From Rhodothermales bacterium (GTDB lineage: Bacteria > Bacteroidota > Rhodothermia > Rhodothermales > VXPQ01): a stretch of DNA of 64,000 nucleotides. The stretch's first letter is position 1. Each line of letters begins with the position of its first letter. This document shows positions 5,570 through 64,000 of this stretch, one piece after another. The position numbers and the translations under genes are program-made. The stretch lies in NCBI GenBank assembly GCA_951812345.1, contig OX638295.1:681987-745986 (forward strand), in the 5' to 3' direction. The notes beneath the pieces were generated by a model. The model was not told the origin of the DNA, did no database searches, and saw nothing but the letters and a program-made list of their open reading frames with translations.

Positions 5570-6411
5570 ATGATGGAAACCTGGGTTATCGCCACCGGCC
5601 CGATTTGCTCACGCTTCCGGGCCCATCGGGCTTTTTCACGCCCGGCATGTGGATCGGGATGGTGATCACGCTCTCCTTCGGGATCGTTTTTCAGCCGCAC
5701 ATGATGATTCGCTATTACACGGCGGTGGACGGCAAGACCCTCAAACTGCTCGGCGCAACCACGCCGATCTATTTGATGACGCTATACATTCCCGCAGCCC
5801 TCGTAGGACTGGGCGGCGCGCTGGTCATGCCGGAACTGGCGGCGGCGGACCGCATTTTTCCCGAATTGCTTTTCGCGCATGCCCCGGCGTGGCTTACCGG
5901 CGTCATTCTTGCCGGGGCTGCGGCTGCCGCCATGTCCACGCTGGATTCCATCCTGCACGCCAACATGACTGTGCTCACGCGCGATGTGTACCAGCGCTAT
6001 GTGGCGCGGGGCAAAAGTCAGGCGCACTACGTTTTCGTCGGGCGCGTCATTGTGCTTGCGCTCCTTGTGGTAGCCTGCATTCTTTCGCTGGCGGAGAGCG
6101 ATTTACTCGTGCACATCATTACGCTATCCGGCGCAGGCGCCCTCCAGCTCATGCCCGCCATCATTGGCATATGCTTTCCCGGCGGCCGCTCGCTCAGCCG
6201 GGCGGGCGTACTGGCCGGGCTGGCTGTCGGGATGGTTATTCTATGGCTTACGCTGGTCGTATTTCCTCATCCGTTAGGCATGCACGGCGGGTTGTGGGCG
6301 CTCCTCGCGAACGCAGCGGTTGCCGTGGGCGTCTCCTGCATGACGCCGCCGCCTTCCGGCGAGACGGTCGCGCGCGTTCACGGCGAGGTGGAGCGCTTCA
6401 TAGCGCAGTGA
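5570..6411 (+). pseudogene. Sodium:solute symporter with internal deletion/frameshift
   Basis: ORF 5605-6411 is only the C-terminal half of an SSS protein (QPHMMIRYY, AAAAMSTLDSILH); ATG at 5570 (MMETWVIAT) is out of frame. Confidence 0.7.
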
Positions 6412-6434
6412 AAGGATCGCCGGGATGACGGGCA

Positions 6435-6516
6435 GCGCACCCCTCGCAGCCTTCCGAAGGGCGCTTTACGCACGAACGCGAAGCGCTGATCGAAGCAGTT
6501 TCGATCAGAATACCCT
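6435..6516. repeat. MITE-like family 1, internally deleted copy
   Basis: GCGCACCCCTCGCAGCC..CCGAAGGGCG..GCGCTGATCGAAGCAGTTTCGATCAGAATACCCT. Confidence 0.7.
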
Positions 6517-6729
6517 GTACGCCTTCTGTTTCCTGCACGGGGCATTTGTTCGCGTACAAATGCGTACGTTACAGAGGCGCTGTACCCTAACGGTTTGGTC
6601 CTCGAACGCCATCCGGGGAAACCGCGCGCAGGAAGCGAGATTTAATCCTTATAGATATCCTTATTCGCGGCTGTCGCATACGGCCGCATGCAGTCGCATA
6701 CATAGCCCGGTGGTTTTACCAACGATTCC

Positions 6730-8973
6730 ATGTTGCGAGCTTCTTCCATCCTGAGCAATACCGACTTGCAGGTCGAACCGGAATTCGAAGCTGGGCTCGA
6801 CGAATTGCTCGAGGCGTGCCGCCAATCCCTGCGGTCGGTGGATGAGGATATGATCCGTCGCGCCTTCAGGCTGGGTTACTGGGCGCATCGCAACGATCGG
6901 CGAGCCTCGGGGGAACGATTCATTACGCACCCGATCGAGGTAGCGGTGATCGTGGCCAGGGACATCGGGTTCGACGACATAAGCGTCGTCTCGGCGCTAT
7001 TGCACGACACCGTGGAAGACACCGAGTTTTCTCTGGACCTCATACGGGAAGAATTCGGCGAGACGGTGTCGAACATCGTCGACGGGCTGACCAAGATCCG
7101 GGGGGTTTCCTGGAACCGCGAACTGGGCCAGGCGGAAAATGTCCGCAAGCTCATGCTTTCCATGGCGACGGACATTCGCGTCATTCTCATAAAGTTTGCA
7201 GATCGTTTGCACAACCTGCGGACTATCGAGTCGCTTCCCAAACAAAAGCAACTCAAGATTGCAAGCGAGACGCTGGATCTCTTTGCGCCGCTTGCCCACC
7301 GTTTCGGGCTGCACGTTATCAAGGACGAGTTGGAAGATATTTCCCTGAAAATCATCCACCCGGAAGAATTCCGCGACATTGTGCAAAGTTTGCAGGCCTC
7401 CAAAGTCGAGCGGGACGGCTATGTGCGCCGTTTTATCGAACCGTTGCGGGAGCGTCTCGAAAGCGACGGGTTCGATTTCGAGATGGCCGGCCGGTCGAAG
7501 AATCTCTATTCGATCTGGCGGAAAATGAAGCGGACGGATAAGCCGATCGAAGAGATATACGACTTGCTTGCCATTCGTATTGTCCTGCAAAGCGCCGGTA
7601 AAAAAGGAAAAGAAGATTGCTGGAGGGTGTATTCGATCATTACGGATCTGTACAAACCGTTGCCGGAGCGCTTCCGGGATTTCATTTCGGTGCCCAAGTC
7701 CAACGGCTACCAGAGTCTGCACACGACGGTTCTGGGGCCCACGGGGCGGCGGGTGGAGGTGCAGATCCGCACGGACGAGATGCACGCCATCGCCGAGCGC
7801 GGCGTGGCGGCGCACTGGAAGTACAAGGAAGCCGTGAGCGACCGGGACCGCGGGATGGAGCAATTTCTCGTATGGGTGCGGGATATTCTTGAAAACCCCA
7901 ACCCCGAACACGCCACGGAGTTCGTCAAGGAGTTTCGACTCAATCTGTACGACGAGGAAATATACATTTTCACCCCCAAGGGGGATTTGAGGACGCTGCC
8001 CCGCAATGCGACCCCTATCGATTTCGCCTTTCAGGTGCATACCGAAATAGGCATGCACTGCATCGGGGCGAAAGTGAACGGCAGGATGGTGCCGCTTTCG
8101 TACAAGCTTCAGAGCGGCGATCAGGTGGAGGTCATCACCTCGAAGAAGCAGACGCCGAATCCGGACTGGATGAAGTTTGTCGTTACGCACAAGGCGCGCA
8201 GTAGAATACGGCATTTAATCAACGAGAAGCGCCGTCGCAGCATGGACCTGGGCCGGGAAATGCTCGAGAAAAAACTTGACAAGGCCGGTCTGGACGTTGA
8301 CGACCAGAAGTTGCGCGGAGCAGCCAACCGGCTCAAGTTTCCGAACGCCCAGCAAATGTTCTACGAGATCGGGACGGGACTTTTCGATGCGAAGGATTTT
8401 GTGGAGTTCATCAGGAACGAGTCCCGCGCCCGAAAGGAAGAGGAAGAAGAGGCTGCCGAGGAGGAAGGACTCCGGTTGCGGTACGAAAATTTCCTGGATT
8501 CTGCGCAGGTGGCGGCCCAACCGGCGCTCGAAATCGACGGGGAATTGCATACGGACATCGTCACGCGGTATGCGCCTTGCTGCAATCCGATTCCCGGCGA
8601 CGATGTGTTCGGCTACATAAGCCGCAGCGACGGCATAAAGATTCACCGCATCAATTGCCGGAACGCTCCCAGCCTGCTCGTAAACCATCCCGACCGCATC
8701 GTATCGGTGGAATGGAGCCGGCAGAAAGACGTGCAATTCCTGTCCGGCTTGCGCGTGATGGGAGAGGATCGCGTGGGCATGGTAAGCGATATCACGACCG
8801 TTATTTCCAAAAACCTGAAAACGAACATTCGTTCCATCACGGTGGATTCCGAGGATGGCGTTTTTGAGGGCACGATCGTGTGCTCGGTGACGGATCTGTC
8901 GCATCTTCGCCGCCTTATCGAGCGGCTGAAGCGCATCGACGGGATTCACGGAGTGTACCGGTTCGAGGAGTGA
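6730..8973 (+). CDS. spoT: Long RelA/SpoT (p)ppGpp synthetase/hydrolase
   Basis: HD motif ALLHDTVED, synthetase YDLLAIRI and KSNGYQSLHT, TGS (DFAFQVHTEIG), C-terminal ACT domain. Confidence 0.95.
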   Translation: MLRASSILSNTDLQVEPEFEAGLDELLEACRQSLRSVDEDMIRRAFRLGYWAHRNDRRASGERFITHPIEVAVIVARDIGFDDISVVSALLHDTVEDTEFSLDLIREEFGETVSNIVDGLTKIRGVSWNRELGQAENVRKLMLSMATDIRVILIKFADRLHNLRTIESLPKQKQLKIASETLDLFAPLAHRFGLHVIKDELEDISLKIIHPEEFRDIVQSLQASKVERDGYVRRFIEPLRERLESDGFDFEMAGRSKNLYSIWRKMKRTDKPIEEIYDLLAIRIVLQSAGKKGKEDCWRVYSIITDLYKPLPERFRDFISVPKSNGYQSLHTTVLGPTGRRVEVQIRTDEMHAIAERGVAAHWKYKEAVSDRDRGMEQFLVWVRDILENPNPEHATEFVKEFRLNLYDEEIYIFTPKGDLRTLPRNATPIDFAFQVHTEIGMHCIGAKVNGRMVPLSYKLQSGDQVEVITSKKQTPNPDWMKFVVTHKARSRIRHLINEKRRRSMDLGREMLEKKLDKAGLDVDDQKLRGAANRLKFPNAQQMFYEIGTGLFDAKDFVEFIRNESRARKEEEEEAAEEEGLRLRYENFLDSAQVAAQPALEIDGELHTDIVTRYAPCCNPIPGDDVFGYISRSDGIKIHRINCRNAPSLLVNHPDRIVSVEWSRQKDVQFLSGLRVMGEDRVGMVSDITTVISKNLKTNIRSITVDSEDGVFEGTIVCSVTDLSHLRRLIERLKRIDGIHGVYRFEE

Positions 8974-53690: not shown

Positions 53691-53724
53691 CCTCTGATCT
53701 TTGCGGACTTAACCAGAGTATCCT
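53691..53724. repeat. MITE-like family 1 end
   Basis: CCTCTGATCTTTGCGGACTTAACCAGAGTATCCT. Confidence 0.7.
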
Positions 53725-53751
53725 TATGGACATTCAGGTCAGGTGCAGTTG

Positions 53752-56700
53752 ATGAATCGATCCGATGCCTACCAGGGTGAGCCGGGCGGTCCCATTGCCT
53801 TTATGGCGAGCAACCGCGTTGCCGCCAATCTGTTGATGTTCGCCATATTGGCGGCCGGTATCGTGGCGCTGGGGGGGCTGGAGCGGGAAGCTTGGCCGAC
53901 GGTTCCTTTCAATACGATCGAAGTATCCGTGATCTACCCCGGCGCCCAGCCTGAAGAGGTGGAGGAGTCGATCATTGTCAAGATCGAGGAGCAGGTCGAG
54001 GCGCTGGAAGATGTCAAGGCGGTCAAGTCCTTGGCCGCCCCTGGGGTGGCATCGGTGAGGGTTGAGTTGAAAACCGGCGCGGACATGGGCGAGATCATGG
54101 ACGAGGTCAAATCCGCGGTCGGGCGTATCCAGTCGTTTCCCGGTGTCGCCGAGCGTCCGCAGTTCAGGGAGATGGACAACCGCACCAGCATGATCCGTCT
54201 GATCGTCTTTGGCGACATCCCCGAACGCTCGCTGAAGGAGTTGGCCTATCAGATTGAAGACGAGTTGGGGTCTCTGCCCAACGTGTCCAACGTCGCAACC
54301 ACGGGGATGAGAGACTATGAAATCTCGATCGAAGTGCCGCTCGTTCATCTGCGCGCTCTCGGGCTGACGCTCGACGATATTGCGGGTGCGGTCCGTCGCA
54401 GTTCCCTCGATCTTTCGGCCGGCAGCATCGATACGCGGGACGCCCAGGTGCGTGTCCAAACCCTGGGCCAGAGCTACGACCAGATCGACTTCGAAGAGAT
54501 CGTCGTCCTTGCCCGGAACGATGGCACGGTTGTGCGTCTCGGAGATATCGCCAATGTGCGCGATACGTTCCGGGATACGGACCTGATTCTCCGGCACCAG
54601 GGTCAGCCGGCGCTTTTCGTGGAGGTGTTCCGGGCCGAGGGCGAGCAGGTGATGGATGTTGCCGAAGCCGTACACGAGCACACGGAGAACGTGATTATTC
54701 CATCTCTGCCCGATGGCGTCGGGGTCGTCTTCTGGAACGACGATTCCCAGACGTACATCGAGCGGCTCGATATTCTGGTCCGAAACGGTCTTCTGGGACT
54801 TATTCTGGTGTTTATCGCGCTGGCTCTGTTTCTCGAGATACGGCTTGCATTGTGGGTTGTCATCGGCCTGATTACCTCAGGCGTTGGGGCCCTGGCTGTC
54901 ATGCTGGGGTTCGGTCTGGCGGTCAATACCATTTCCCTGTTCGCGTTTCTCCTGGCGATCGGCATCATCGTCGACGATGCCATTGTTGTAGCCGAGCATA
55001 TCCACTACGAACGAAAGCGGGGCACGCCGGGACTTGTTGCGGCGATCCGGGGCACGCGACGAATCAAAAAAGCATTGACCTTCGCGGTGCTCACTTCGGT
55101 GGCGGCGTTCACGCCCCTGCTTTTTATTCCCGGCGGCATCGGAGAGGTATGGGGCGCATTACCGATAATTATTATCGGCATGCTTTTGATCTCGCTGGCC
55201 GAATCGCTCTTTATCCTGCCCAACCACCTGTCCCACTTGGATGGACCGGGGTGGGTAGCGACCAACATGGCGGATCGGTTCTTCGCGCGCATTCGGGACT
55301 CCGTGGATGGGGGGTTGAACCGATTCCTGGCGGGCCCCATGGATCGAGCGCTGCGCTTCGCAACGAATCAACCCGTTGTCGTATTGGCGGGGTCCGTTGG
55401 CCTGCTCATTGTTATTGTGTCTCTGGTGCCGGCGGGTATTGTCCCCACAACCTTCGCCGATGTCGTAGAAGGCGACTTCGTCACCGCGACCCTTGAAATG
55501 CCGGACGGGACTCTTGCGGAGCGGACCTACGAGGTGGCTATGGAACTGGAGCGGGCGGGACGACGGGTGCTGGAACGCCTGGATCAGGATAGACCGGCCG
55601 ATGCTCCCTCGCTGCTGTCCGGCGTGATCGTAACGGTCGGTCAAAGACCCCGCGTGGAGGGGGGAGGGCTTAATCCGACCCTTACCATGAACCCGGAAGC
55701 CAACATCGCCACCGTAGAATTCAAGCTGCTGGGCGCCCAGGAGCGGAATATGTCCACCATAGCCGTCATGCAGGCCTGGCGGGACGAGGTCGGCGTCCTC
55801 CCGTATGTTCGGGGAATCTCCTTCAGCGGCGAGATTATCGATCTCGGCAGCCCGGTGGAGGCCGTGTTGTCGCATCCGGATCCGGCGCGTCTGGCGGAAA
55901 TCACAGACTCGGTAGTTGACGAGCTTCGCAGTGTGACAGGCGTTTTCGATGTCCGGTCCGATCATGCGCCGGGCGTCGGGCAGATTCAACTGGAGTTGCG
56001 GCCGGAAGCGCGAACGCTTGGCCTCACGGCCGAGGATATGGCGCGGCAGGTGCGGGCGGCATTTTTTGGCGTGGAAGCGCTGAGGCTGCAACGCGAACGG
56101 GAAGAGGTTCGGGTCTACGCGCGGCTGCCCGACGACGAGCGCGATGCGCTCACGGATGTGGAGAACTATCTGATCCATACCCGGTCGGGAGGGGAAGTGC
56201 CGATCAGCCAGGCGGCGTCGCTGAGCATGGGCACGTCGCCGCCGTCGATCCGGCGCCAGGACGGTCAGCGCGTCGTGACGGTGACGGCGGATGTGGACGA
56301 GAGCGTGATCTCGAGCGGAGAAGCGAATGGCATTCTCGATGATACGATCCTTGCGCAACTGATCGCCGCCAACCCCGAGATGACCTACTCCTTCGGCGGC
56401 GAACAGCAGCAGCAACTGGAGTCGCTGGATGCGCTGTATCGTGGCTTCGTGCTCGCCATGCTCGCGATTTTCGCGCTATTGGCCATTCCGCTGGGGTCCT
56501 ACGGTAAACCGTTCATCGTGATGGCCATCATTCCGTTCGGCCTCATCGGCGTCGTCCTCGGTCACCTTGTGCTGGGTGTTGCCATCAGCGCCGCATCGTT
56601 CATGGGTTTCTTCGGGCTTGCCGGGGTTGTCGTCAACGATTCGCTGGTCATGATCGACTTCATTGACCAGCGGCTCAGGGAGGGCGCCAGCCCGAAGGAG

Positions 56701-56931
56701 GCGATCATCGATGGCGCAAAGGGACGCTTCCGGCCCATCATGCTGACCTCGGTAACCACGTTTCTCGGCTTCACGCCGCTTATTCTCGAACGGGCCATTC
56801 AGGCGCAGTTCCTGGTTCCCTTCGCGGCCTCGCTCGGCGTCGGCGTCATGATTACCACTGCGATACTGATCGTGCTCGTGCCGGCACTGATGGCTATCTA
56901 TCTGCGCGCCAACTCGCAATATTCCCGTTAA
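53752..56931 (+). CDS. RND-family permease (AcrB/AcrD/AcrF-type)
   Basis: ~1060 aa, two TM blocks, IGIIVDDAIVVAE, GVVVNDSLV, RFRPIMLTS. Confidence 0.93.
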   Translation: MNRSDAYQGEPGGPIAFMASNRVAANLLMFAILAAGIVALGGLEREAWPTVPFNTIEVSVIYPGAQPEEVEESIIVKIEEQVEALEDVKAVKSLAAPGVASVRVELKTGADMGEIMDEVKSAVGRIQSFPGVAERPQFREMDNRTSMIRLIVFGDIPERSLKELAYQIEDELGSLPNVSNVATTGMRDYEISIEVPLVHLRALGLTLDDIAGAVRRSSLDLSAGSIDTRDAQVRVQTLGQSYDQIDFEEIVVLARNDGTVVRLGDIANVRDTFRDTDLILRHQGQPALFVEVFRAEGEQVMDVAEAVHEHTENVIIPSLPDGVGVVFWNDDSQTYIERLDILVRNGLLGLILVFIALALFLEIRLALWVVIGLITSGVGALAVMLGFGLAVNTISLFAFLLAIGIIVDDAIVVAEHIHYERKRGTPGLVAAIRGTRRIKKALTFAVLTSVAAFTPLLFIPGGIGEVWGALPIIIIGMLLISLAESLFILPNHLSHLDGPGWVATNMADRFFARIRDSVDGGLNRFLAGPMDRALRFATNQPVVVLAGSVGLLIVIVSLVPAGIVPTTFADVVEGDFVTATLEMPDGTLAERTYEVAMELERAGRRVLERLDQDRPADAPSLLSGVIVTVGQRPRVEGGGLNPTLTMNPEANIATVEFKLLGAQERNMSTIAVMQAWRDEVGVLPYVRGISFSGEIIDLGSPVEAVLSHPDPARLAEITDSVVDELRSVTGVFDVRSDHAPGVGQIQLELRPEARTLGLTAEDMARQVRAAFFGVEALRLQREREEVRVYARLPDDERDALTDVENYLIHTRSGGEVPISQAASLSMGTSPPSIRRQDGQRVVTVTADVDESVISSGEANGILDDTILAQLIAANPEMTYSFGGEQQQQLESLDALYRGFVLAMLAIFALLAIPLGSYGKPFIVMAIIPFGLIGVVLGHLVLGVAISAASFMGFFGLAGVVVNDSLVMIDFIDQRLREGASPKEAIIDGAKGRFRPIMLTSVTTFLGFTPLILERAIQAQFLVPFAASLGVGVMITTAILIVLVPALMAIYLRANSQYSR

Positions 56932-56932
56932 A

Positions 56933-57982
56933 ATGTCAGCAAGACGCGCCGAACTGGAAAATATCCCGTCGCCTCCCTCTTTCCCGGAGGGTTGGTACTT
57001 CGTTGCCAGCCGTCAATCCGTACTGAAGGAGAAACTGATTGAAAAGACCTGGATGGGCGAACAAATCGTTGTCTGGTGCGACGATGCAGGCCGCATCTGC
57101 GTGGCGCTGGCGGTGTGTCCGCACCTCGGGTCCGATCTGGGACCCGAAGCCGGTGGCCAGGTGCGGGACGGTTGTCTCGTTTGTCCGTTTCACGGCTTTC
57201 AGTTCGATGTAAGCGGCCAGTGCGTCGCCACTCCTTTTGCCCCGCCGCCCAGGGCCGCGCGGCTGAAGGTATTCGAGACGCGGGAAATCCTTGGCATGGT
57301 CTTCGCGTGGTGGGGAATAGACGGCCGCCCGCCGCAATGGAGCCTTCCCGAGGAGCCTGTGGCCGGGGCCGACTGGAGCGAAGTGGGGTTTCGGACCCTT
57401 CGATTTCCAGGACACCCCCAGGAAACCACCGAGAACTCTGTGGACTTTTTACATCTGCAGTACGTGCATGGCTATGGCAATACGCGCATGCTTGAACCGG
57501 TAGCTATCGACGGTGCTTGTCTGACGAGCAGGTTCGAATTCAGACGCACCCAGAATATTATCGGGATAAAGGATATTGCACTGGATGTCTCCGCTGTCGC
57601 GCGCATCTTCGGCCTGGGATATTCATACGTGGAAATTCACGAGCGCTCCATTGAAATGTATGGGCGTTTGTGGGTGCTCGCAACGCCCGTCGACGGCAGG
57701 CACATCGAAATGGTATTGGCCAGTCAGATACGGGAGATCCGTAAACCGAAACGTCCGATCGTCGGTCTGGGATTTCTTCCGCCGGGTCTTCGCACCAGGG
57801 TCATGAACAGCATCATTCTATCTTATCAAAAGCATGATGTTTTGCAGGATGTGATTATCTGGGGACGAAAACGGTACGTGCCCTATCCGAGACTGTGTCG
57901 GGCCGACGGCGACATCGGCAAGTATCGACGCTATTGCAAACAGTTCTATACGGATCCTCGGGGTTCCGGTAAAGACGGGTAA
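56933..57982 (+). CDS. Rieske non-heme iron oxygenase (KshA/Nvd-like architecture)
   Basis: CPHLG...CPFHG cluster ligands; ENSVDFLHLQYVH and DVIIW iron ligands. Confidence 0.88.
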   Translation: MSARRAELENIPSPPSFPEGWYFVASRQSVLKEKLIEKTWMGEQIVVWCDDAGRICVALAVCPHLGSDLGPEAGGQVRDGCLVCPFHGFQFDVSGQCVATPFAPPPRAARLKVFETREILGMVFAWWGIDGRPPQWSLPEEPVAGADWSEVGFRTLRFPGHPQETTENSVDFLHLQYVHGYGNTRMLEPVAIDGACLTSRFEFRRTQNIIGIKDIALDVSAVARIFGLGYSYVEIHERSIEMYGRLWVLATPVDGRHIEMVLASQIREIRKPKRPIVGLGFLPPGLRTRVMNSIILSYQKHDVLQDVIIWGRKRYVPYPRLCRADGDIGKYRRYCKQFYTDPRGSGKDG

Positions 57983-58009
57983 TTGACCATAGTACTGGGC
58001 ACGTGGATC

Positions 58010-58050
58010 CCTCTCGCCTCTGAGCTTTGCGGACTTAATCAGAGTGTTCT
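58010..58050. repeat. MITE-like family 1 end
   Basis: CCTCTGAGCTTTGCGGACTTAATCAGAGTGTTCT. Confidence 0.7.
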
Positions 58051-58080
58051 TATGAGTAATAACGTGTGGGGCGGTATCAA

Positions 58081-59484
58081 ATGAGTGGACGACCCGAAGG
58101 GGGCCGGTCAGCGGAACGAGGCGCGCCACCGAGAAAAGTTGCTATTATCGGTGCCGGAGTGTCGGGATTGGGGACGGCCTGGGCGTTGCACAAGCACCCT
58201 GATCGATTCGATTTTCGGGTGTTCGAAGCGCAGGCTCAGATCGGCGGCAATGCCATTACGGCCGATATGCCGCAAGACGATGGCACGTCGATTCCGTTTG
58301 ACATTTCTGTTACCGCGTGTATTCCGTCCGTATACCATCATATTGTTCTGTTCATGCAGCAACACGGTATCGAACTGATCGATACCCGATTCAGCTACAG
58401 CGTGAAGTATCGCGGCGGCATTTATGCGCACGATTTTGATTCCGACATCAGGAGGCAGTTACAACCTGAGATTGAGAAATTTCAGAAACTTCTGAGACGT
58501 GCACAGTGGTTTGGCCGGCTAAACCGTTCCAGGTCCAGATTACTCAATGCGCTCAACCCGTTCAATTACGTCAGTATGGGTGCGGTTCTCAACCTGGGCA
58601 GGTTTTCCGGAGATTTCAGGTACAAGATTCTGAAGCCCATGTTCGTCAACTTCCTGATGGCCACGAACGTGTTCGATATGCCCGCGTCGCTGTTTTGCCG
58701 GTATCTGGAGTTCTTTGATATTGAAAGCGCGACACCGATGCAAACATGGGACCAGGGCACGCGGCGCATCTATGAGAAGATGGCGGGCGCCTTTCAGGAC
58801 AAGATATACCTTAATCGCCCGGTGCGGAAGGTGTACCGTCGCCAATCCGATGTGCTTGTGGAGGACCAGGACGGAAAGACGGAAACGTTTGATGACGTGG
58901 TGTTTGCGTGCAATGCGAATCAAACGCTGATGATGTTGGATAAACCGACCTTTCTGGAGAGCTATCTGCTATCTTCGATACGTTATGAAAGTGAATTGCA
59001 CAACCATACGGTCGTTCATTCGGATGCCTCGATTCTACCGGACAACGACGTCAAGCCACTCGCCACCCGGAGCAACCACATCGAGCAGTACGGCGTACGG
59101 CCCGACAACTACGAAATCACCTATATCATGCACAATCAGCAGCCCTGGGCGGGTCGCTCAGACAAGCCGTGCCTGGTGACCTACAATCCTATCAGCCGTA
59201 TCGACGGAGGTAAGGTGGTCAAGAAGTGGTGGTTTCAGCATATAGTACACGATGTGCGTCATGTGGCCTTTCTGGTCCATTTGTTTCGCTTTGTTCAGGG
59301 CAGGAGACGAACGTGGCACTGCGGCGCCCACACGCTGATCAACAGCCAGGAGACCTGTTTTGTGTCCGGTCTTGTTACGGCGAGACAGATCGGCGCGGAT
59401 TATCCGTTCCGGGATACTGCGGCAAGGAAATGGTTCAACTTTTATGGGCGCCTGATGTACGGTTGGCGTCTCAGGAAGGCGTAA
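58081..59484 (+). CDS. FAD-dependent oxidoreductase (COG2907-like)
   Basis: KVAIIGAGVSGL, FEA..QIGG, C-terminal WHCGAH...E.CFVSGL. Confidence 0.8.
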   Translation: MSGRPEGGRSAERGAPPRKVAIIGAGVSGLGTAWALHKHPDRFDFRVFEAQAQIGGNAITADMPQDDGTSIPFDISVTACIPSVYHHIVLFMQQHGIELIDTRFSYSVKYRGGIYAHDFDSDIRRQLQPEIEKFQKLLRRAQWFGRLNRSRSRLLNALNPFNYVSMGAVLNLGRFSGDFRYKILKPMFVNFLMATNVFDMPASLFCRYLEFFDIESATPMQTWDQGTRRIYEKMAGAFQDKIYLNRPVRKVYRRQSDVLVEDQDGKTETFDDVVFACNANQTLMMLDKPTFLESYLLSSIRYESELHNHTVVHSDASILPDNDVKPLATRSNHIEQYGVRPDNYEITYIMHNQQPWAGRSDKPCLVTYNPISRIDGGKVVKKWWFQHIVHDVRHVAFLVHLFRFVQGRRRTWHCGAHTLINSQETCFVSGLVTARQIGADYPFRDTAARKWFNFYGRLMYGWRLRKA

Positions 59485-59558
59485 AGGGTGGCTGTTTCTC
59501 AGAGTAATCGGATGAAGAGGGAGGTGAAACCGATGCAATGACGGATCGGTTATATTTT

Positions 59559-59597
59559 AGGATACTCTGATCGAAGCGGTCTTGATCAGAGTATCCT
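59559..59597. repeat. Minimal 39-bp family 1 element (end to end)
   Basis: AGGATACTCTGATCGAAGCGGTCTTGATCAGAGTATCCT. Confidence 0.85.
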
Positions 59598-59668
59598 TTG
59601 CATCCGGTTCCAGATCGTCGTGCAGTTCTGGTCCTCCCCCATCGACACGGCACTTGACAAGGTTTAGC

Positions 59669-61696
59669 ATGGAAAACACATCCGCAAAATTCCCAATACG
59701 TCTTGTCGAAGAGTTGATTCTTCTTATGCTCGACGAACAGAGCGGATATCTGGAAATGGTTCCAGGCTGGAATTTTTCCTGCGTTATGGCGGGGGCCGTA
59801 CTTGCCGATCTTGCGCTGGAGGATCGGATAGACACCGATCTGGACGCGCTCTATCCGGTCAATTCCCGTCCCACCGGAGACAACCTGCTCGACCCGACGC
59901 TCAAGGAAATCGCCGAATCAAAAAAAAAACAGGATACGCAGTACTGGATCGAGCGGAACACGGGCCGTTCCGACGACATCGTCACGGCCACGCTCGATCG
60001 CCTGGTGGAGAGGGAAATCCTTGAGCACGAGAGCGGCGGATTCTGGGGGCTTTCCCGCTCCGTTTCCCGTTCGGGCACCTATCCAGCTTCGGATCTGAAG
60101 GTTCGGCAGGAAGCCAAGACAAGGATTCTGAGCGTCATCATGAACGACGACAGCATTCCGGATCCGCGCGACGCCATTCTCATTGCCTTGATGCATACGT
60201 GCGGCGGTTTCAAGCTGCTGCTTGAGCCGGAAGACTACGAAGAGCGGCTCGAGCGCATCGAGCTTGTCGCCAAACTGGACCTGATAGGGCGGACGGTTGC
60301 GACTGCGGTGAAGGACAGCACCGCCAAGCCGAGGACCCGCCGCGTTCTTCGGACCAAACCCATTCCGAAGCTCCGATACACCGATATTCTGCGGCAGCGT
60401 GACTTCCGCTCGGGCAATATTCCCAAGGCGATGCACGGCATTTTCCAGGAGCACGGGCCGGTCGTCGAGCTTCCCTTCAAGATGCGTAAGTCACGGGTAA
60501 TCGCCTTGATGGGGCCGGAGACCAATCAGTGGGTGAACAAGCACGGGCGGTTCTATCTTCGCTCGAAGGACTACATCAAGGATTTGGAGAGCGCGTTCGG
60601 CGCATCCCGAACTCTTCCGGGGATGGATGGGGCTGAGCACTACAGGATGCGTAAGGAGTTGAAGAGCGCCTATTCTCGCGCCTCGCTTGCGGGACGGTTG
60701 CCGGAGTTGGTCCACCACTGCCGGCAATCGCTGAGTCGATGGAATGAAGGCGATATTTTCCGTGCAGGCGAAGCCTTCCAACATCACATCAGCAGTCAAA
60801 TCTCGCATCTTATGATCGGAGTGGACTGCAGCCATTACGTCGACGAACTGCTTGAATATGAACATCGGGCGCTGGTAACGCAGGTTCAGGGTGCATTGCC
60901 GAAATTCATGTTGTCGACGCCGAAGATGAGGCGTTATGGCAAGCGCGTCCGTGAACTCCAGGAGGCGATCACCGCATCGCACACACCGGGGCAGAGGAGG
61001 GGGAAACCTGCGGACCTTGCCGACGCAATCCTCGGACTCCATAAAAACGATCCGCAGTTCCTGCCGGAAACGGACCTCACTTTTCCGTTCGTTGCGTCGA
61101 TGGTTGCCAGCATATACCTCGGAAGCGGGCTTGCTTTCGCCGTCTACTCCATGGTTCGCCATCCGGATCTGTATGCGAGGATCCGCAGAGAAGCCGAGTT
61201 GCTTTTCGGGAACGGACGCCAACCGGAAGCGGAGGAATTCAGTCATGACACCATCGATGTCACTGTCCGTCTTTACATGGAGTCCTCGCGTGTGCACCCG
61301 GTGATTCCCTGGCAGTTGAGAATGGTCATGAACGAGTGCATTGTGAGCGGCTTCCAGATTCCGGCCAAGACGATGCTCTTGATCTGCCAGACCGTATCGC
61401 ACTACTCCGACGATCTGTTCAAGACGCCGCTGAAATTCGACATAGACCGTTATCTGCCGGATCGGGCAGAGCACACGACGCCGGGCGCCTACGCGCCCTA
61501 CGGGCTGGGCACACACATGTGTCTTGGGAATCGATGGGTGGAACTTCAGATGGTCGTCAATTTATTGCTTATCGCGTACCACTTGAAGCTGGAAGTGCTG
61601 CCTGCAAACTATAAGCTCGGAATGAATCCATTCCCGACATCTGCTCCCAACAAGAAGTTGAAGTTCCGGGTCGCTCAAGTCACGGATCTGGCCTGA
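59669..61696 (+). CDS. GPP34/GOLPH3-like domain fused to cytochrome P450
   Basis: N: LVEELILLMLD..G, AGAVLADLAL..RI, PTGDNLLD, PDPRDAILIAL; C: ESSR (ExxR), DRYLP, YGLGTHMCLG; one continuous frame. Confidence 0.8.
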   Translation: MENTSAKFPIRLVEELILLMLDEQSGYLEMVPGWNFSCVMAGAVLADLALEDRIDTDLDALYPVNSRPTGDNLLDPTLKEIAESKKKQDTQYWIERNTGRSDDIVTATLDRLVEREILEHESGGFWGLSRSVSRSGTYPASDLKVRQEAKTRILSVIMNDDSIPDPRDAILIALMHTCGGFKLLLEPEDYEERLERIELVAKLDLIGRTVATAVKDSTAKPRTRRVLRTKPIPKLRYTDILRQRDFRSGNIPKAMHGIFQEHGPVVELPFKMRKSRVIALMGPETNQWVNKHGRFYLRSKDYIKDLESAFGASRTLPGMDGAEHYRMRKELKSAYSRASLAGRLPELVHHCRQSLSRWNEGDIFRAGEAFQHHISSQISHLMIGVDCSHYVDELLEYEHRALVTQVQGALPKFMLSTPKMRRYGKRVRELQEAITASHTPGQRRGKPADLADAILGLHKNDPQFLPETDLTFPFVASMVASIYLGSGLAFAVYSMVRHPDLYARIRREAELLFGNGRQPEAEEFSHDTIDVTVRLYMESSRVHPVIPWQLRMVMNECIVSGFQIPAKTMLLICQTVSHYSDDLFKTPLKFDIDRYLPDRAEHTTPGAYAPYGLGTHMCLGNRWVELQMVVNLLLIAYHLKLEVLPANYKLGMNPFPTSAPNKKLKFRVAQVTDLA

Positions 61697-61891
61697 GTGC
61701 GCAAGCTGTATGCGTTGGCGCGGACGCTATTCGGACCGTAATCGTTCTGTACGGTGTTTCCGGGACGCATGAAAAGAGTACTAACCCGCCGAAATACGTC
61801 CAGCGGCAGATTTGACGGGCAAAACGTGCGGATATAGCAGCTCCCTGTAAAGACTGCCTCACGGGGACTGGGCGCAGGGGTGCTGAACATA

Positions 61892-62147
61892 AGGATACTC
61901 TGACCAAAACCGCTTTGCTCAGCGCGCCACGTTCGCAAGTACAGGTTATCATGATTTCATCGTCGGAATCATGGGAAGCACTGCGAACTCGGGGCGTCGC
62001 GGACGTGACACGCCCTTCGGGAGGCTGCGAGGAGCACGCTGGCTGTGTCATTCCTCATTACATGGGGCCTGCCATGCTGCTTCGTCATTCCTTGCCAGCG
62101 CACCCCTCGCAAACCTCTGAACTTTGCGGATTTAATCAGAGTATCCA
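61892..62147. mobile_element. MITE-like family 1, longest copy (~256 bp)
   Basis: AGGATACTCTGACCAAAACCGC ... GCGGATTTAATCAGAGTATCC; no ORF. Confidence 0.85.
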
Positions 62148-62452
62148 TAAAATGACCCTTGCAAGGCGGATATGCCGTCCATACGTATATAACCTCTCCA
62201 AAAAAACGCATCTTCAAGGAAACTTTACAGCAAAGGCGGTCTACCATTAGGTTGTTACCGGAGAATGTGTTATGTCCGCCCCCCATGCATTCCCCGGTTT
62301 TGCCTCAGCAAGTTTTACCTGTTTCTTTGCGTTATGCAGATGCCGACACAAGTCCTTCTGGGAATCCCCAACAACCTCTATGTTTTCGATTTTGGCCGGT
62401 CCGGAACCGGTTCGGCCCCGTTCAACGGGGACGAAGCCGAAATTGAGAAAAA

Positions 62453-63055
62453 TTGGGATATGGTTCAGCAAAACGTTTCGATCAATGGTTCGAAGGGGTC
62501 GCTCTATCGCCGGCCCAAGACCATGCCGGGCATAACGGTTATCCAGAAAGATTGACTGGAGCAGATGGTTTTCCGCGGCTGAATCTTCCGGCCTGCCCTC
62601 TTCGCATCCGATCGGGGGCGGATAAGGATTCCCGATACGTCTTCGATCCTGTACGCAAAAAATATGTGCGCCTCGTTCCGGAGGAATGGGTGCGCGGGCA
62701 TTTTTTGCATTTTCTCATGCAGGATTGCGGCTACCCGCTGGCTCTTATTGCCGTTGAGATGCACTTCGAATACCAGGGCATGTCTCGTCGTGCCGACATT
62801 GTCGCGTACGATCGGCGGGGCGTTCCCTTCCTGATGGTGGAATGCAAGGCGCCGGAGGTTCGCATAGGATCGGCGGCGTTTGAGCAGATAGCGAAATATA
62901 ACAGAGTTGTCGGAGCGCGTTATCTTGCCGTAACCAACGGATTGCGCCATTACTGCTGGCAGTCTGATCGTCCGGACGATTTTATGGATCGCATTCCGCC
63001 TTTCGAAGCAGTCTCTGCAGGTGATCCTGCAAACGATACCCCCCCAACCCTATGA
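62453..63055 (+). CDS. Type I restriction HsdR N-terminal-domain protein (standalone; start uncertain, likely ~62550)
   Basis: RLNLP, FDPVRKKYV.LVPEEWVR, RADIV, VECKAP, QIAKYN, TNG. Confidence 0.85.
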   Translation: MGYGSAKRFDQWFEGVALSPAQDHAGHNGYPERLTGADGFPRLNLPACPLRIRSGADKDSRYVFDPVRKKYVRLVPEEWVRGHFLHFLMQDCGYPLALIAVEMHFEYQGMSRRADIVAYDRRGVPFLMVECKAPEVRIGSAAFEQIAKYNRVVGARYLAVTNGLRHYCWQSDRPDDFMDRIPPFEAVSAGDPANDTPPTL

Positions 63056-64000
63056 AATACCAGGCAGAGTTCGACGTGGCCATCCATGCCGTGCGCATGG
63101 CGGCGCGTGTCTGCATGTCCGTTCAGAAAACGCTGGGGCAATCCGCGATCAGGAAAGAAGATCGTTCTCCGGTGACGGTAGCGGATTTTGGAAGCCAGGC
63201 GGTTGTATGTCATGCGTTGCAGGAAGCGTTTCCGCATGATCCCGTAATTGGCGAGGAGGATTCGGACGTTCTGTGCCTGCCGGAAAACAAAAGCGTGCTC
63301 GACAAGGTGACCACCGAGGTGGCGCATGTGCTGCCCGGCGCAACACACGAGTCGGTATGCGCCTGGATCGACAGGGGCAATGCGGACGGATATTCCGAGC
63401 GTTTCTGGACGCTGGATCCGATCGATGGCACGAAGGGATTTCTGCGGTGCGATCAGTACGCTGTGGCTCTGGCGTTGATCATAGAGGGGCAGATCACCGT
63501 GGCGGCAATGGCTTGTCCCGACTTACCCTGCGATGCGCAAGGGGGCAATGAGAAGGGGGCCGTGTTTGCGGCGCACCGGGGGGAAGGAGCTTTTCAGGCC
63601 CCCCTTCACGATGCCGGGGATGCTGCCTGGCAGCCCATCCGGGTGCGTACCGTAGCAACCGGCGCGCAAGCCCGGCTTTGCGAACCTTTCGAATCGAATC
63701 ACGGCTCCCGCCGGGACGTGGCCGCCGTCGCGACGCACCTGGGTGTAGAGGCCGCCTCGCTCCGTTTAGACAGCCAGGCAAAATATGGTGTGCTGGCGCG
63801 CGGCGATGCGGATATTTACCTTCGTCTGACATCCCGGTCGGGATATATCGAGAATATATGGGATCATGCTGCGGGCGCGCTCATTGTGGAGGAGGCAGGC
63901 GGCATGGTTACGGATATGGCGGGCCGCCCGCTTGATTTTCGGTTCGGTGCGCAACTCGAGCGGAATACGGGTATTGTCGCCACGAATGGGCTTTTGCACG
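63052..64000 (+). CDS. 3'(2'),5'-bisphosphate nucleotidase / inositol monophosphatase family, runs off window
   Basis: Hand translation: KEDRSPVTVADFGSQA, GEED, WTLDPIDGTKGF, DSQAKY, IWDHAAG; ATG overlaps the upstream TGA. Confidence 0.9.
   Translation, partial: MKYQAEFDVAIHAVRMAARVCMSVQKTLGQSAIRKEDRSPVTVADFGSQAVVCHALQEAFPHDPVIGEEDSDVLCLPENKSVLDKVTTEVAHVLPGATHESVCAWIDRGNADGYSERFWTLDPIDGTKGFLRCDQYAVALALIIEGQITVAAMACPDLPCDAQGGNEKGAVFAAHRGEGAFQAPLHDAGDAAWQPIRVRTVATGAQARLCEPFESNHGSRRDVAAVATHLGVEAASLRLDSQAKYGVLARGDADIYLRLTSRSGYIENIWDHAAGALIVEEAGGMVTDMAGRPLDFRFGAQLERNTGIVATNGLLH

Follow-up and report, generated by a model that had tools for sequence, protein, structure and literature searches.

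A GOLPH3-like domain fused to a cytochrome P450 in a sponge-symbiont gene island apparently equipped for oxidation and efflux of a sterol-like lipid

What does a GOLPH3-like domain do at the front of a bacterial cytochrome P450? The gene that raises this question lies in the window, as we call the whole 64,000-nt stretch of DNA analysed here, which belongs to the closed 2.8-Mb genome of a Rhodothermales-like symbiont found in sponge metagenomes. The earlier note on this DNA had suggested that the domain may target the P450 to a specific membrane or lipid, a role it did not know to be described for a P450. However, the architecture was published in 2025 as GPP34_L, comprising 656 proteins from sponge symbionts (Microbiome 2025;13:4, PMC11706023). 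The fusion itself is already known and the gene is a member of this family: it carries GPP34 and P450 in one polypeptide in a sponge-associated bacterium, with the same N-terminal GPP34/C-terminal P450 order, sponge habitat and multi-phylum spread. The role proposed there is that of a secreted PI4P-binding effector, whereas the evidence presented here points to a metabolic role. To the published fusion we add a gene island, the loss of the PI4P pocket, a changed I-helix and the sterol and redox genes that the genome lacks.

Architecture and authenticity of the fusion

The fusion gene lies within an open frame that runs without interruption (Table 1), and the length of the protein from its ATG fits those of homologues (671-675 aa). 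From the letters, a GPP34 domain followed by a P450 with an ExxR motif and a heme Cys in YGLGTHMCLG had been recognised in an ORF of ~675 aa, and a Pfam scan had been proposed. That scan bears the description out, placing both domains above cut-off. GPP34 (PF05719; E 2e-35) covers residues 12-215 and scores 123.2 bits where 29.1 are required, the match extending over profile positions 1-199 of 201; p450 (PF00067; E 4e-28) covers residues 248-649 and scores 99 bits where 22.8 are required. The P450 motifs are E538-S-S-R541 and the heme loop Y-G-L-G-T-H-M-C618-L-G, of the FxxGxxxCxG type, with Cys618 as the heme cysteine. Between the domains is a basic linker (residues 216-247; net charge +9 over residues 214-250). 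Conservation is much the same in the two halves of the protein (mean top-residue frequency 0.81 and 0.80).

The fusion is genuine. Misassembly, which the earlier note had raised, is excluded because independent assemblies cross the domain junction (nt ~60314-60410) and the same architecture recurs in over 120 clusters of proteins. The junction is bridged by individual Logan contigs of three independent runs (X1 and X3, 59328-60970; X5, 59328-60856), each showing 0-4 differences, and both domains are present in 120/120 clusters among the matches listed, at 70% identity or more. A sequence scan found neither a signal peptide nor a transmembrane segment, and given their absence the protein is predicted to be cytoplasmic.

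Table 1 Features of the fusion locus in the window
Feature	Position	Strand	Remarks
RND permease, AcrB-type	53743..56931	+	1062 aa, ~12 hydrophobic segments
KshA-like Rieske non-heme-iron oxygenase	56933..57982	+	349 aa, Rieske + KshA_C
Amine-oxidase-fold FAD flavoprotein	58066..59484	+	472 aa, GxGxxG at residue 29
GPP34-P450 fusion gene	59669..61696	+	675 aa, ATG at 59669
Open frame containing the fusion	59582..61696	+	uninterrupted
~65-nt hairpin repeat copy	53692..53723	+	just 5' of the RND start
Hairpin repeat copy	58018-58049
Hairpin repeat copy	59565-59598		diverged
Hairpin repeat copy	61891-61922		inverted
Hairpin repeat copy	62115-62146

A GOLPH3 fold without the PI4P pocket

An AF2 model of the GPP34 domain (pLDDT 82.5) has GOLPH3 and Vps74 as its only significant fold matches in the PDB (Foldseek TM 0.67, E 4e-8 to 7e-5), and the domain's sequence profile matches the same two proteins (GOLPH3, E 2.7e-8; Vps74, E 2e-6). 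The linker is ordered in the full-length model (pLDDT 89.9, pTM 0.84). The domain shares with GOLPH3 and Vps74 (PDB 3KN1, 9QPQ, 2ZIH) a fold of a helical core and a projecting beta-hairpin, together with the core motifs PTGDxLLD and W-I/V-E. Its hairpin (strands 118-121 and 125-128 in the AF2 model) keeps an aromatic/basic character.

The residues that bind PI4P in GOLPH3, by contrast, are not found in the fusion. In human numbering the key positions are W81, R90, R171 and R174, and R90L by itself abolishes PI4P binding (PMC3596250). R90 corresponds to Ala41 here, in a high-confidence alignment block, and across 45 diverse proteins of the family the position holds A/V/G/S/T and in no case a basic residue. 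In the fusion family R171 is replaced by D/E/N or falls within a 10-residue deletion of its loop; R174 is V/I/S in the window's clade, with Arg retained only in deep branches, and W81 aligns with V31/P32 of the window's protein. Judged by sequence, the PI4P pocket is lost from the GPP34 domain of the fusion, and PI4P recognition is not supported because the equivalents of R90, R171 and R174 are not conserved. The fusion's domain also differs from GOLPH3 and Vps74 in being joined to an enzyme, in a bacterium without a Golgi or COPI context.

The membrane-addressing idea therefore stands in one part and falls in another. PI4P recognition drops out with the pocket residues, whereas the domain may still stand in for a membrane anchor: it occupies the exact position of the N-terminal anchor in eukaryotic sterol P450s, with the basic linker next to it. 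By this analogy, and from the basic linker and the hairpin, we infer that GPP34 could dock to the membrane independently of PI4P.

The P450 half and its redox supply

By sequence and fold, the nearest relatives of the P450 half are CYP51, CYP46A1, CYP184A1, BM3 and CYP120A1, with CYP51 as the best PDB match (E 2e-20, ~20% identity, residues 358-649 only). Although the sterol P450s CYP51 and CYP46A1 are among these neighbours, the fusion is only ~20% identical to any solved P450 and its I-helix is not CYP51-like. No equivalog-level NCBIfam match was obtained for the P450, including none to sterol demethylases, and identification as the sterol 14alpha-demethylase CYP51 was rejected for this reason and for the differing I-helix. 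An extra module on a class-II-like P450 is also seen in eukaryotic microsomal P450s, whose anchor is in the same N-terminal position, and in fusion enzymes such as BM3 and the CYP51-ferredoxin of Methylococcus, but the GPP34 module is neither a transmembrane helix nor a redox partner.

Residues E538, R541, G612, H616 and C618 are invariant among 45 diverse members. The I-helix, in contrast, reads A480-S-I-Y483-L484-G-S here and is missing the acid-alcohol pair of (A/G)-G-x-(D/E)-T. All 47 copies of the island clade have A-(S/A/G)-x-Y-(L/M/P), with Tyr invariant at the acid position, whereas AG-x-(D/E)-T is retained in deep-branch fusions. Because this pair is lost, ordinary O2-activating monooxygenation cannot be assumed.

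The closed genome gave no matches to Fer2 (PF00111), Fer4_15 or FNR-type NAD_binding_1 (PF00175) proteins, while control genomes matched PF00111 in 12/14 cases and PF00175 in 11/14, which leaves the electron supply of both the P450 and the Rieske oxygenase unexplained. The genome's second P450 has no adjoining redox partner and lies in an unrelated gene context.

A gene island shared across phyla

Of all the evidence, the conserved company that the fusion keeps, which the earlier note missed, says most about function. In the window it consists of four genes (53743-61696), ordered RND permease, Rieske oxygenase, flavoprotein and, last, the fusion. The Rieske ORF begins 1 nt past the RND stop and is translationally coupled to the pump gene. 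The RND permease is an orphan in the window, with no adaptor or outer-membrane factor adjoining.

The Rieske protein (PF00355 + PF19298; CxH..CxxH at residue 62, HxxxxH at residue 174) aligns over its full length with the KshA component of the 3-ketosteroid 9alpha-hydroxylase KshAB, its best PDB match (4QDC, E 2e-25), followed by SxtT, dicamba demethylase and phthalate dioxygenase. It differs from the KshAB system in that the closed genome has no KshB-type reductase (Fer2 + NAD_binding_1). Assignment to SdmA, the sterol C-4 demethylase, was rejected at equivalog level, the score being 28.5 bits where 600 are required. The nearest solved relative of the flavoprotein is LkcE.

Reshuffled versions of the island recur in 47 species genomes from at least six phyla, with gene order and orientation varying from phylum to phylum. 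At these 47 loci the commonest neighbour of the fusion is the RND permease (34-36), followed by the Rieske oxygenase (33-34), a pump adaptor (32), an outer-membrane factor (26), the flavoprotein (23-24) and an SMT (21); at least one partner gene lies within 8 kb of 45/47 fusion copies. The SMT of related loci (family 9) has Methyltransf_11 and Sterol_MT_C domains, and these loci often add a NodT-type outer-membrane factor and a pump adaptor that are not present in the window's island. Orthologues of the Rieske, flavoprotein and RND proteins adjoining the fusion in other phyla are 65-97% identical, and Dehalococcoidia loci, where the fusion is 46% identical, still carry an SMT, Rieske or flavoprotein gene beside it. 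The island is confined to the clade with the ASxYL I-helix; deep-branch AGxDT fusions were rejected as further carriers, their neighbours being unrelated.

In the tree of the fusion, at least five label changes are required for Acidobacteriota and at least two for Rhodothermota, and the window's copy is nested within an Acidobacteriota-rich clade. At the level of sequence, this distribution shows the island to be mobile, shared horizontally among sponge symbionts of many phyla. Base composition gives no support to a recent acquisition by the window's genome: the island's GC of 0.574 (genome, 0.585) falls at the 28th percentile of the genome's 8-kb windows.

Host genome and sterol capacity

Runs labelled sponge metagenome, or labelled with the coded host 'organism A', contain 0.81-0.97 of the words sampled from the gene. 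Its closest relatives come from MAGs that appear, by their isolate names, to be bins of sponge studies. Searches of the closed genome found no squalene or oxidosqualene cyclase, for either sterols or hopanoids, while controls gave matches. Nor was an SMT found there, by a protein search and a PF08498 family search that was run without a positive control. The strongest sterol marker is therefore missing here, and without it the substrate might be some other hydrophobic compound. With its minimal four-gene island and no sterol synthesis of its own, this genome is a clean test case for action on host-derived lipids.

Part of the island's gene company appears to be foreshadowed in the literature: bacterial SMT genes are often found with three uncharacterized genes, maybe of an unknown steroid pathway (Hoshino & Gaucher, PNAS 2021, PMC8237579, as far as the available text of that paper goes). 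Compared with what the available text describes of SMT-associated gene sets and bacterial steroid clusters (PMC8237579; PMC10070321), the fusion similarly adjoins a Sterol_MT_C SMT and a Rieske gene in 21/47 related loci, but the window's own genome has neither SMT nor cyclase. Sponge-symbiont SMT clusters were described by Brown et al. (Nat Commun 2023, PMC10070321), who mention neither P450, Rieske nor GPP34.

Weighing the explanations

Our best reading, held tentatively and with somewhat less than even confidence, is that the fusion works in the cytoplasm as an oxygenase of lipids or sterols, is docked to the membrane without PI4P, and belongs to a mobile tailoring and efflux island; with the same confidence, this reading sets aside a role as secreted PI4P effector. 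The P450 would be peripherally attached, with the GOLPH3-fold domain packed rigidly on it as a PI4P-independent docking or adaptor module that retains the P450 on the inner membrane or beside the adjacent RND pump. From there the P450 could reach a hydrophobic substrate embedded in the membrane; the likeliest candidate is a sterol, or a lipid resembling one, that comes from the host. The KshA-type Rieske oxygenase and the amine-oxidase-fold flavoprotein would cooperate with it, and the RND efflux pump would handle product or substrate, presumably outwards. The window's four genes would then be a reduced, SMT-less form of the island. The sterol flavour comes from the KshA-like Rieske protein, Sterol_MT_C in related loci and a P450 near sterol and lipid P450s; a host source is suggested by the genome without a cyclase and by the gene's presence in sponge metagenome runs.

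The handling of xenobiotics is another typical setting for RND pumps, Rieske oxygenases and P450s, and the island might instead oxidise a non-sterol hydrophobic toxin (a terpenoid, alkaloid or halogenated aromatic) from the host or the microbes of the sponge holobiont and pump it out, with GPP34 as the docking module. An AcrB-type RND permease, an adaptor and an outer-membrane factor of NodT type together form the textbook arrangement for multidrug efflux, the Rieske fold also serves non-steroid substrates (SxtT, dicamba demethylase, phthalate dioxygenase), LkcE acts on a polyketide amide, and the window's genome is without SMT. We nevertheless regard this as doubtful, if the most serious of the alternatives, given the linked Sterol_MT_C methyltransferase in 21/47 loci, the full-length best match of the Rieske protein to KshA and the closeness of the P450 half to sterol and lipid P450s. 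Alternatively, what the GPP34 domain links the P450 to might be not a lipid but another protein, with the RND permease, the Rieske oxygenase and an electron donor as candidates; GOLPH3 and Vps74 likewise bind the COPI coat and short cytosolic tails of membrane enzymes. A domain that is conserved as much as the P450 after losing its pocket, that has the GOLPH3 core motifs and whose most frequent neighbour is an RND permease would fit such an adaptor, as would the GPP34 fusions to Rieske and ABC ATPase domains and the GPP34-only genes adjoining P450s (PMC11706023). No partner motif was found, however, and among the best 120 matches there was no GPP34-Rieske fusion orthologous to the island's Rieske protein, and we consider this explanation unlikely.

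The loss of the acid-alcohol pair in 47/47 island-clade copies, with Tyr invariant and Cys and ExxR retained, raises another option, that the ASxYL clade does without O2 activation by partner electrons and works instead on a lipid that already carries oxygen, such as a hydroperoxide or epidioxide of a sterol, isomerising, dehydrating or rearranging it in the manner of CYP74, CYP8A and CYP5A. A genome lacking Fer2, Fer4_15 and NAD_binding_1 proteins would agree with this, but some ordinary monooxygenases, such as EryF, also lack the I-helix Thr, and an electron donor must exist because the co-located Rieske oxygenase needs one anyway, the redox search having covered those three families; we judge it very unlikely. 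Slightly more improbable still is the published hypothesis that a secreted GPP34 effector binds PI4P on the host phagosome and blocks its maturation, which would save the symbiont from being digested (PMC11706023). In its favour, strong enrichment of the family in sponge symbionts and expression in situ are reported (PMC11706023), and the fold is truly GOLPH3-like. Against it are Ala/Val at R90, where a single substitution is enough to kill PI4P binding in GOLPH3 (PMC3596250), acidic or aliphatic residues at R171 and R174, the missing signal peptide, and the nature of the protein, a 675-aa haem enzyme inside a metabolic and efflux island with a neighbour translationally coupled to the pump gene. 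Pocket residues and secretion signals lie outside the analysis of that paper, as do the I-helix and the RND/Rieske/flavoprotein/SMT neighbourhood, and its text uses none of the terms RND, efflux, sterol and amine oxidase (PMC11706023).

The sole published functional idea for a large sponge-symbiont-specific family thus conflicts with the sequence evidence, and the family appears tied instead to sterol-type lipid chemistry and efflux. If so, two literatures would be joined, on sponge-symbiont "eukaryotic-like proteins" and on bacterial sterol methylation, with a bearing through the latter on the sponge-biomarker debate, and the GOLPH3 fold would have been reused in bacteria as an enzyme-docking module. 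As a bolder proposal, to which we give only a slim chance, the ASxYL GPP34-P450s may be an uncharacterised class of bacterial sterol-transforming P450 that dispenses with canonical O2 activation (Tyr for the acid, Leu for Thr), is held at the inner membrane or RND pump by a GOLPH3-fold adaptor blind to PI4P, and with the KshA-like oxygenase and the flavoprotein remodels host sterols that are then exported back to the sponge. In that case symbionts, among them some unable to make or methylate sterols, would help to shape the unusual sterol chemistry of demosponges.

Expression and repeats

Among public RNA runs, the gene was in no confirmed one, and promoter and terminator scans gave matches at chance level. 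A 34-nt hairpin motif stands 5' of three island genes and was considered as an island-specific operator. This was rejected because the motif belongs to a repeat (Table 1) dispersed through the genome in 135 copies.

The fusion gene and its published family

The earlier note described a single open reading frame joining a GPP34-type domain to a P450, and this observation is confirmed: both domains were matched by Pfam, and the quoted motifs are present (E538xxR541; haem loop YGLGTHMC618LG). Counted from an ATG start at 59669, the product is 675 aa long, in line with homologue lengths of 671–675 aa. Misassembly, which the note had named as a concern, is not the explanation: in three independent public runs the domain junction was crossed by individual contigs, with 0–4 differences, and both domains occurred in 120 of 120 protein clusters at ≥70% identity among the matches listed. 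The GPP34 and P450 halves are equally conserved (0.81 versus 0.80), and the full-length model (pLDDT 89.9, pTM 0.84), in which the linker is ordered, suggests that they are held in a fixed mutual arrangement.

The architecture was already known, and the novelty claimed for it does not hold. [quoted passage not shown] The gene is present in public runs labelled sponge metagenome, and the closest relatives of the window's copy are Rhodothermales MAGs (85–87% identity). Of the functional context (island, pocket loss and I-helix change), only part seems to have been published; that paper's text nowhere uses the terms RND, efflux, sterol or amine oxidase and contains no pocket-residue or secretion-signal analysis.

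Features of the window and recurrence of island genes beside the fusion
Feature	Position	Strand	Loci (of 47)	Remark
AcrB-type RND permease	53743-56931	+	34-36	upstream of fusion
Rieske + KshA_C oxygenase	56933-57982	+	33-34	begins 1 nt past RND stop
Amine-oxidase-fold flavoprotein	58066-59484	+	23-24	upstream of fusion
RND adaptor			32	
NodT-type outer-membrane factor (OMF)			26	
Methyltransf_11 + Sterol_MT_C methyltransferase			21	sterol C-24 methyltransferase (SMT) architecture
Open frame of fusion	59582..61696	+		ATG at 59669
GPP34 (PF05719)	residues 12-215			123 bits, cut-off 29.1
p450 (PF00067)	residues 248-649			99 bits, cut-off 22.8
HSDR_N_2-only protein	62453-63055			200 aa; N-terminal domain of type I restriction R subunit
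Inositol-monophosphatase-family gene	63052-63999			start overlapped 4 nt by HSDR_N_2 gene
Repeat copies	16850, 39523(-), 53692, 58018, 59565 (diverged), 61891(-), 62115			

A recurrent and mobile gene island

Across 47 fusion loci from species-representative genomes, the island genes recur beside the fusion in phyla including Acidobacteriota, Rhodothermota, Pseudomonadota, Chloroflexota, Latescibacterota and Gemmatimonadota. At least one partner gene lay within the flanks of 45 fusion copies, gene order and orientation varied among lineages, and partner proteins were 65–97% identical across phyla. At Dehalococcoidia loci, where the fusion is 46% identical, an SMT, Rieske or flavoprotein gene still adjoins it. 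The fusion tree is incompatible with a single origin per phylum, its well-supported branches forcing at least five label changes for Acidobacteriota and at least two for Rhodothermota, and the window's copy sits inside an Acidobacteriota-rich clade. Island composition is not foreign in the window's genome, which argues for an old acquisition in this lineage. Four loci (L007, L010, L017 and L037) carry two GPP34-P450 paralogues in one island.

The window's genome, one closed contig of 2.82 Mb, holds a reduced version. No SMT was found by a family search, run without a positive control, or by a protein search, and no squalene or oxidosqualene cyclase was found by searches whose controls gave matches. 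If the substrate is a sterol, it would therefore have to come from the host, and the island's three oxidative enzymes would work without the methyltransferase. The island's RND permease is an orphan here; a complete OMF-adaptor-RND operon lies outside the window, ~317 kb from the island (genome coordinates C1:415912-421660). Its adaptor and OMF are 58–64% identical to island-linked ones of other genomes and so could supply the missing parts; its RND protein is 49% identical to the orphan. This operon may hold the rest of an island that has become split. Only one other P450 is encoded, in an unrelated context. No candidate electron donor for the Rieske oxygenase or either P450 turned up among Fer2 (PF00111), Fer4_15 (PF13459) and NAD_binding_1 (PF00175) domains, which had no matches in this 96%-complete closed genome, while all three families were matched in most control genomes.

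Candidate functions of the two domains

The GPP34 domain resembles GOLPH3 and Vps74 by profile (E 2.7e-8 and 2e-6), and these were the only PDB matches to an AF2 model of the domain alone (TM 0.67). The authors of GPP34_L proposed that the protein is secreted as an effector, binding PI4P of the host and stopping phagosomes from maturing (PMC11706023). In GOLPH3, however, binding depends on R90, W81, R171 and R174, with R90L abolishing it (PMC3596250), and in the fusion R90 is replaced by Ala41 within a high-confidence block (LRGCMLIELAL in GOLPH3 versus MAGAVLADLAL). This column is basic in 0 of 45 members (25–88% identity); R171 corresponds to a 10-residue deletion or to Asp/Glu/Asn, W81 aligns with Val or Pro, and R174 is Val/Ile/Ser in the island clade and Arg only in deep branches. 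The protein sequence has no signal peptide or transmembrane segment, its sole hydrophobic stretch being the buried I-helix. We consider the secreted effector very improbable. The membrane-addressing role suggested in the earlier note may still hold in general form, shorn of PI4P because the four residues are not kept: the GOLPH3-fold module would dock the P450 at a membrane or pump. The interdomain linker has a net charge of +9, and a hairpin of the domain carries an invariant F125, a near-invariant W126 and Arg130/Arg134. That GPP34 instead serves as a protein adaptor seems improbable.

Our tentative reading, the likeliest of those considered, is of a lipid oxygenase that stays in the cytoplasm, probably has sterols as its substrates, is docked at the membrane or pump independently of PI4P and works inside a mobile tailoring and efflux island. 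By fold, the P450 half lies nearest to P450s of lipids, sterols and retinoids (CYP184A1, CYP51, BM3, CYP46A1 and CYP120A1; TM about 0.8 relative to target, ~20% identity), and no equivalog-level family matched it. The Rieske protein, with CxH..CxxH and HxxxxH motifs, aligns over its full length with 3-ketosteroid 9alpha-hydroxylase KshA (E 2e-25); the nearest solved relative of the flavoprotein is LkcE. Bacterial SMTs of sponge symbionts were shown to alkylate sterol side chains (Brown et al. 2023, PMC10070321); P450, Rieske and GPP34 go unmentioned in that study. In bacterial steroid clusters, the SMT is reported to travel often with three genes of uncharacterised function, perhaps parts of an unknown steroid pathway (Hoshino & Gaucher, PNAS 2021, PMC8237579). 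A detoxification and efflux module acting on non-sterol compounds is unlikely but deserves consideration.

The I-helix reads A-(S/A/G)-x-Y-(L/M/P) in 47 of 47 island-clade copies (A480-S-I-Y-L484 in the window) and canonical AG-x-(D/E)-T in deep-branch fusions. Two of the latter have other neighbours: GH3, acyltransferase_3, sulfotransferase and a second P450 at L048 (copy P0130), and a luciferase-like monooxygenase and MacB/FtsX permease at L049 (P0195). Fusions with the altered I-helix are thus the ones that sit in the sterol-type island, and the GPP34 module evidently serves P450s of several different lipid-type pathways. Among P450s that lack the conserved Thr are substrate-assisted monooxygenases (EryF) and the peroxide-rearranging CYP74, CYP8A and CYP5A; such non-canonical chemistry, which is compatible with a docked sterol oxygenase, has a slim chance of applying here. 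In L037 the I-helix of the second fusion copy (5741-7741, minus strand) reads AGHYL, an intermediate form.

Surroundings of the island

The 756 nt past the fusion stop (61697-62452) contain no assigned gene and two opposed copies (61891-61922 and 62115-62146) of a ~65-nt intergenic hairpin repeat, consensus ...CAGCCTCTGAGCTTTGCGGACTTAATCAGAGTATCCTTTA, which looks REP/MITE-like. Its 135 copies are evenly spread over the genome at ~1 per 21 kb, with five within 8.5 kb around the island, and in short-read assemblies they make depth spike ~20-fold and break contigs. Of the related loci, those of the closest Rhodothermales (L003 and L015) alone keep the HSDR_N_2/inositol-monophosphatase pair downstream of the fusion; L033 too has the first gene of the pair.
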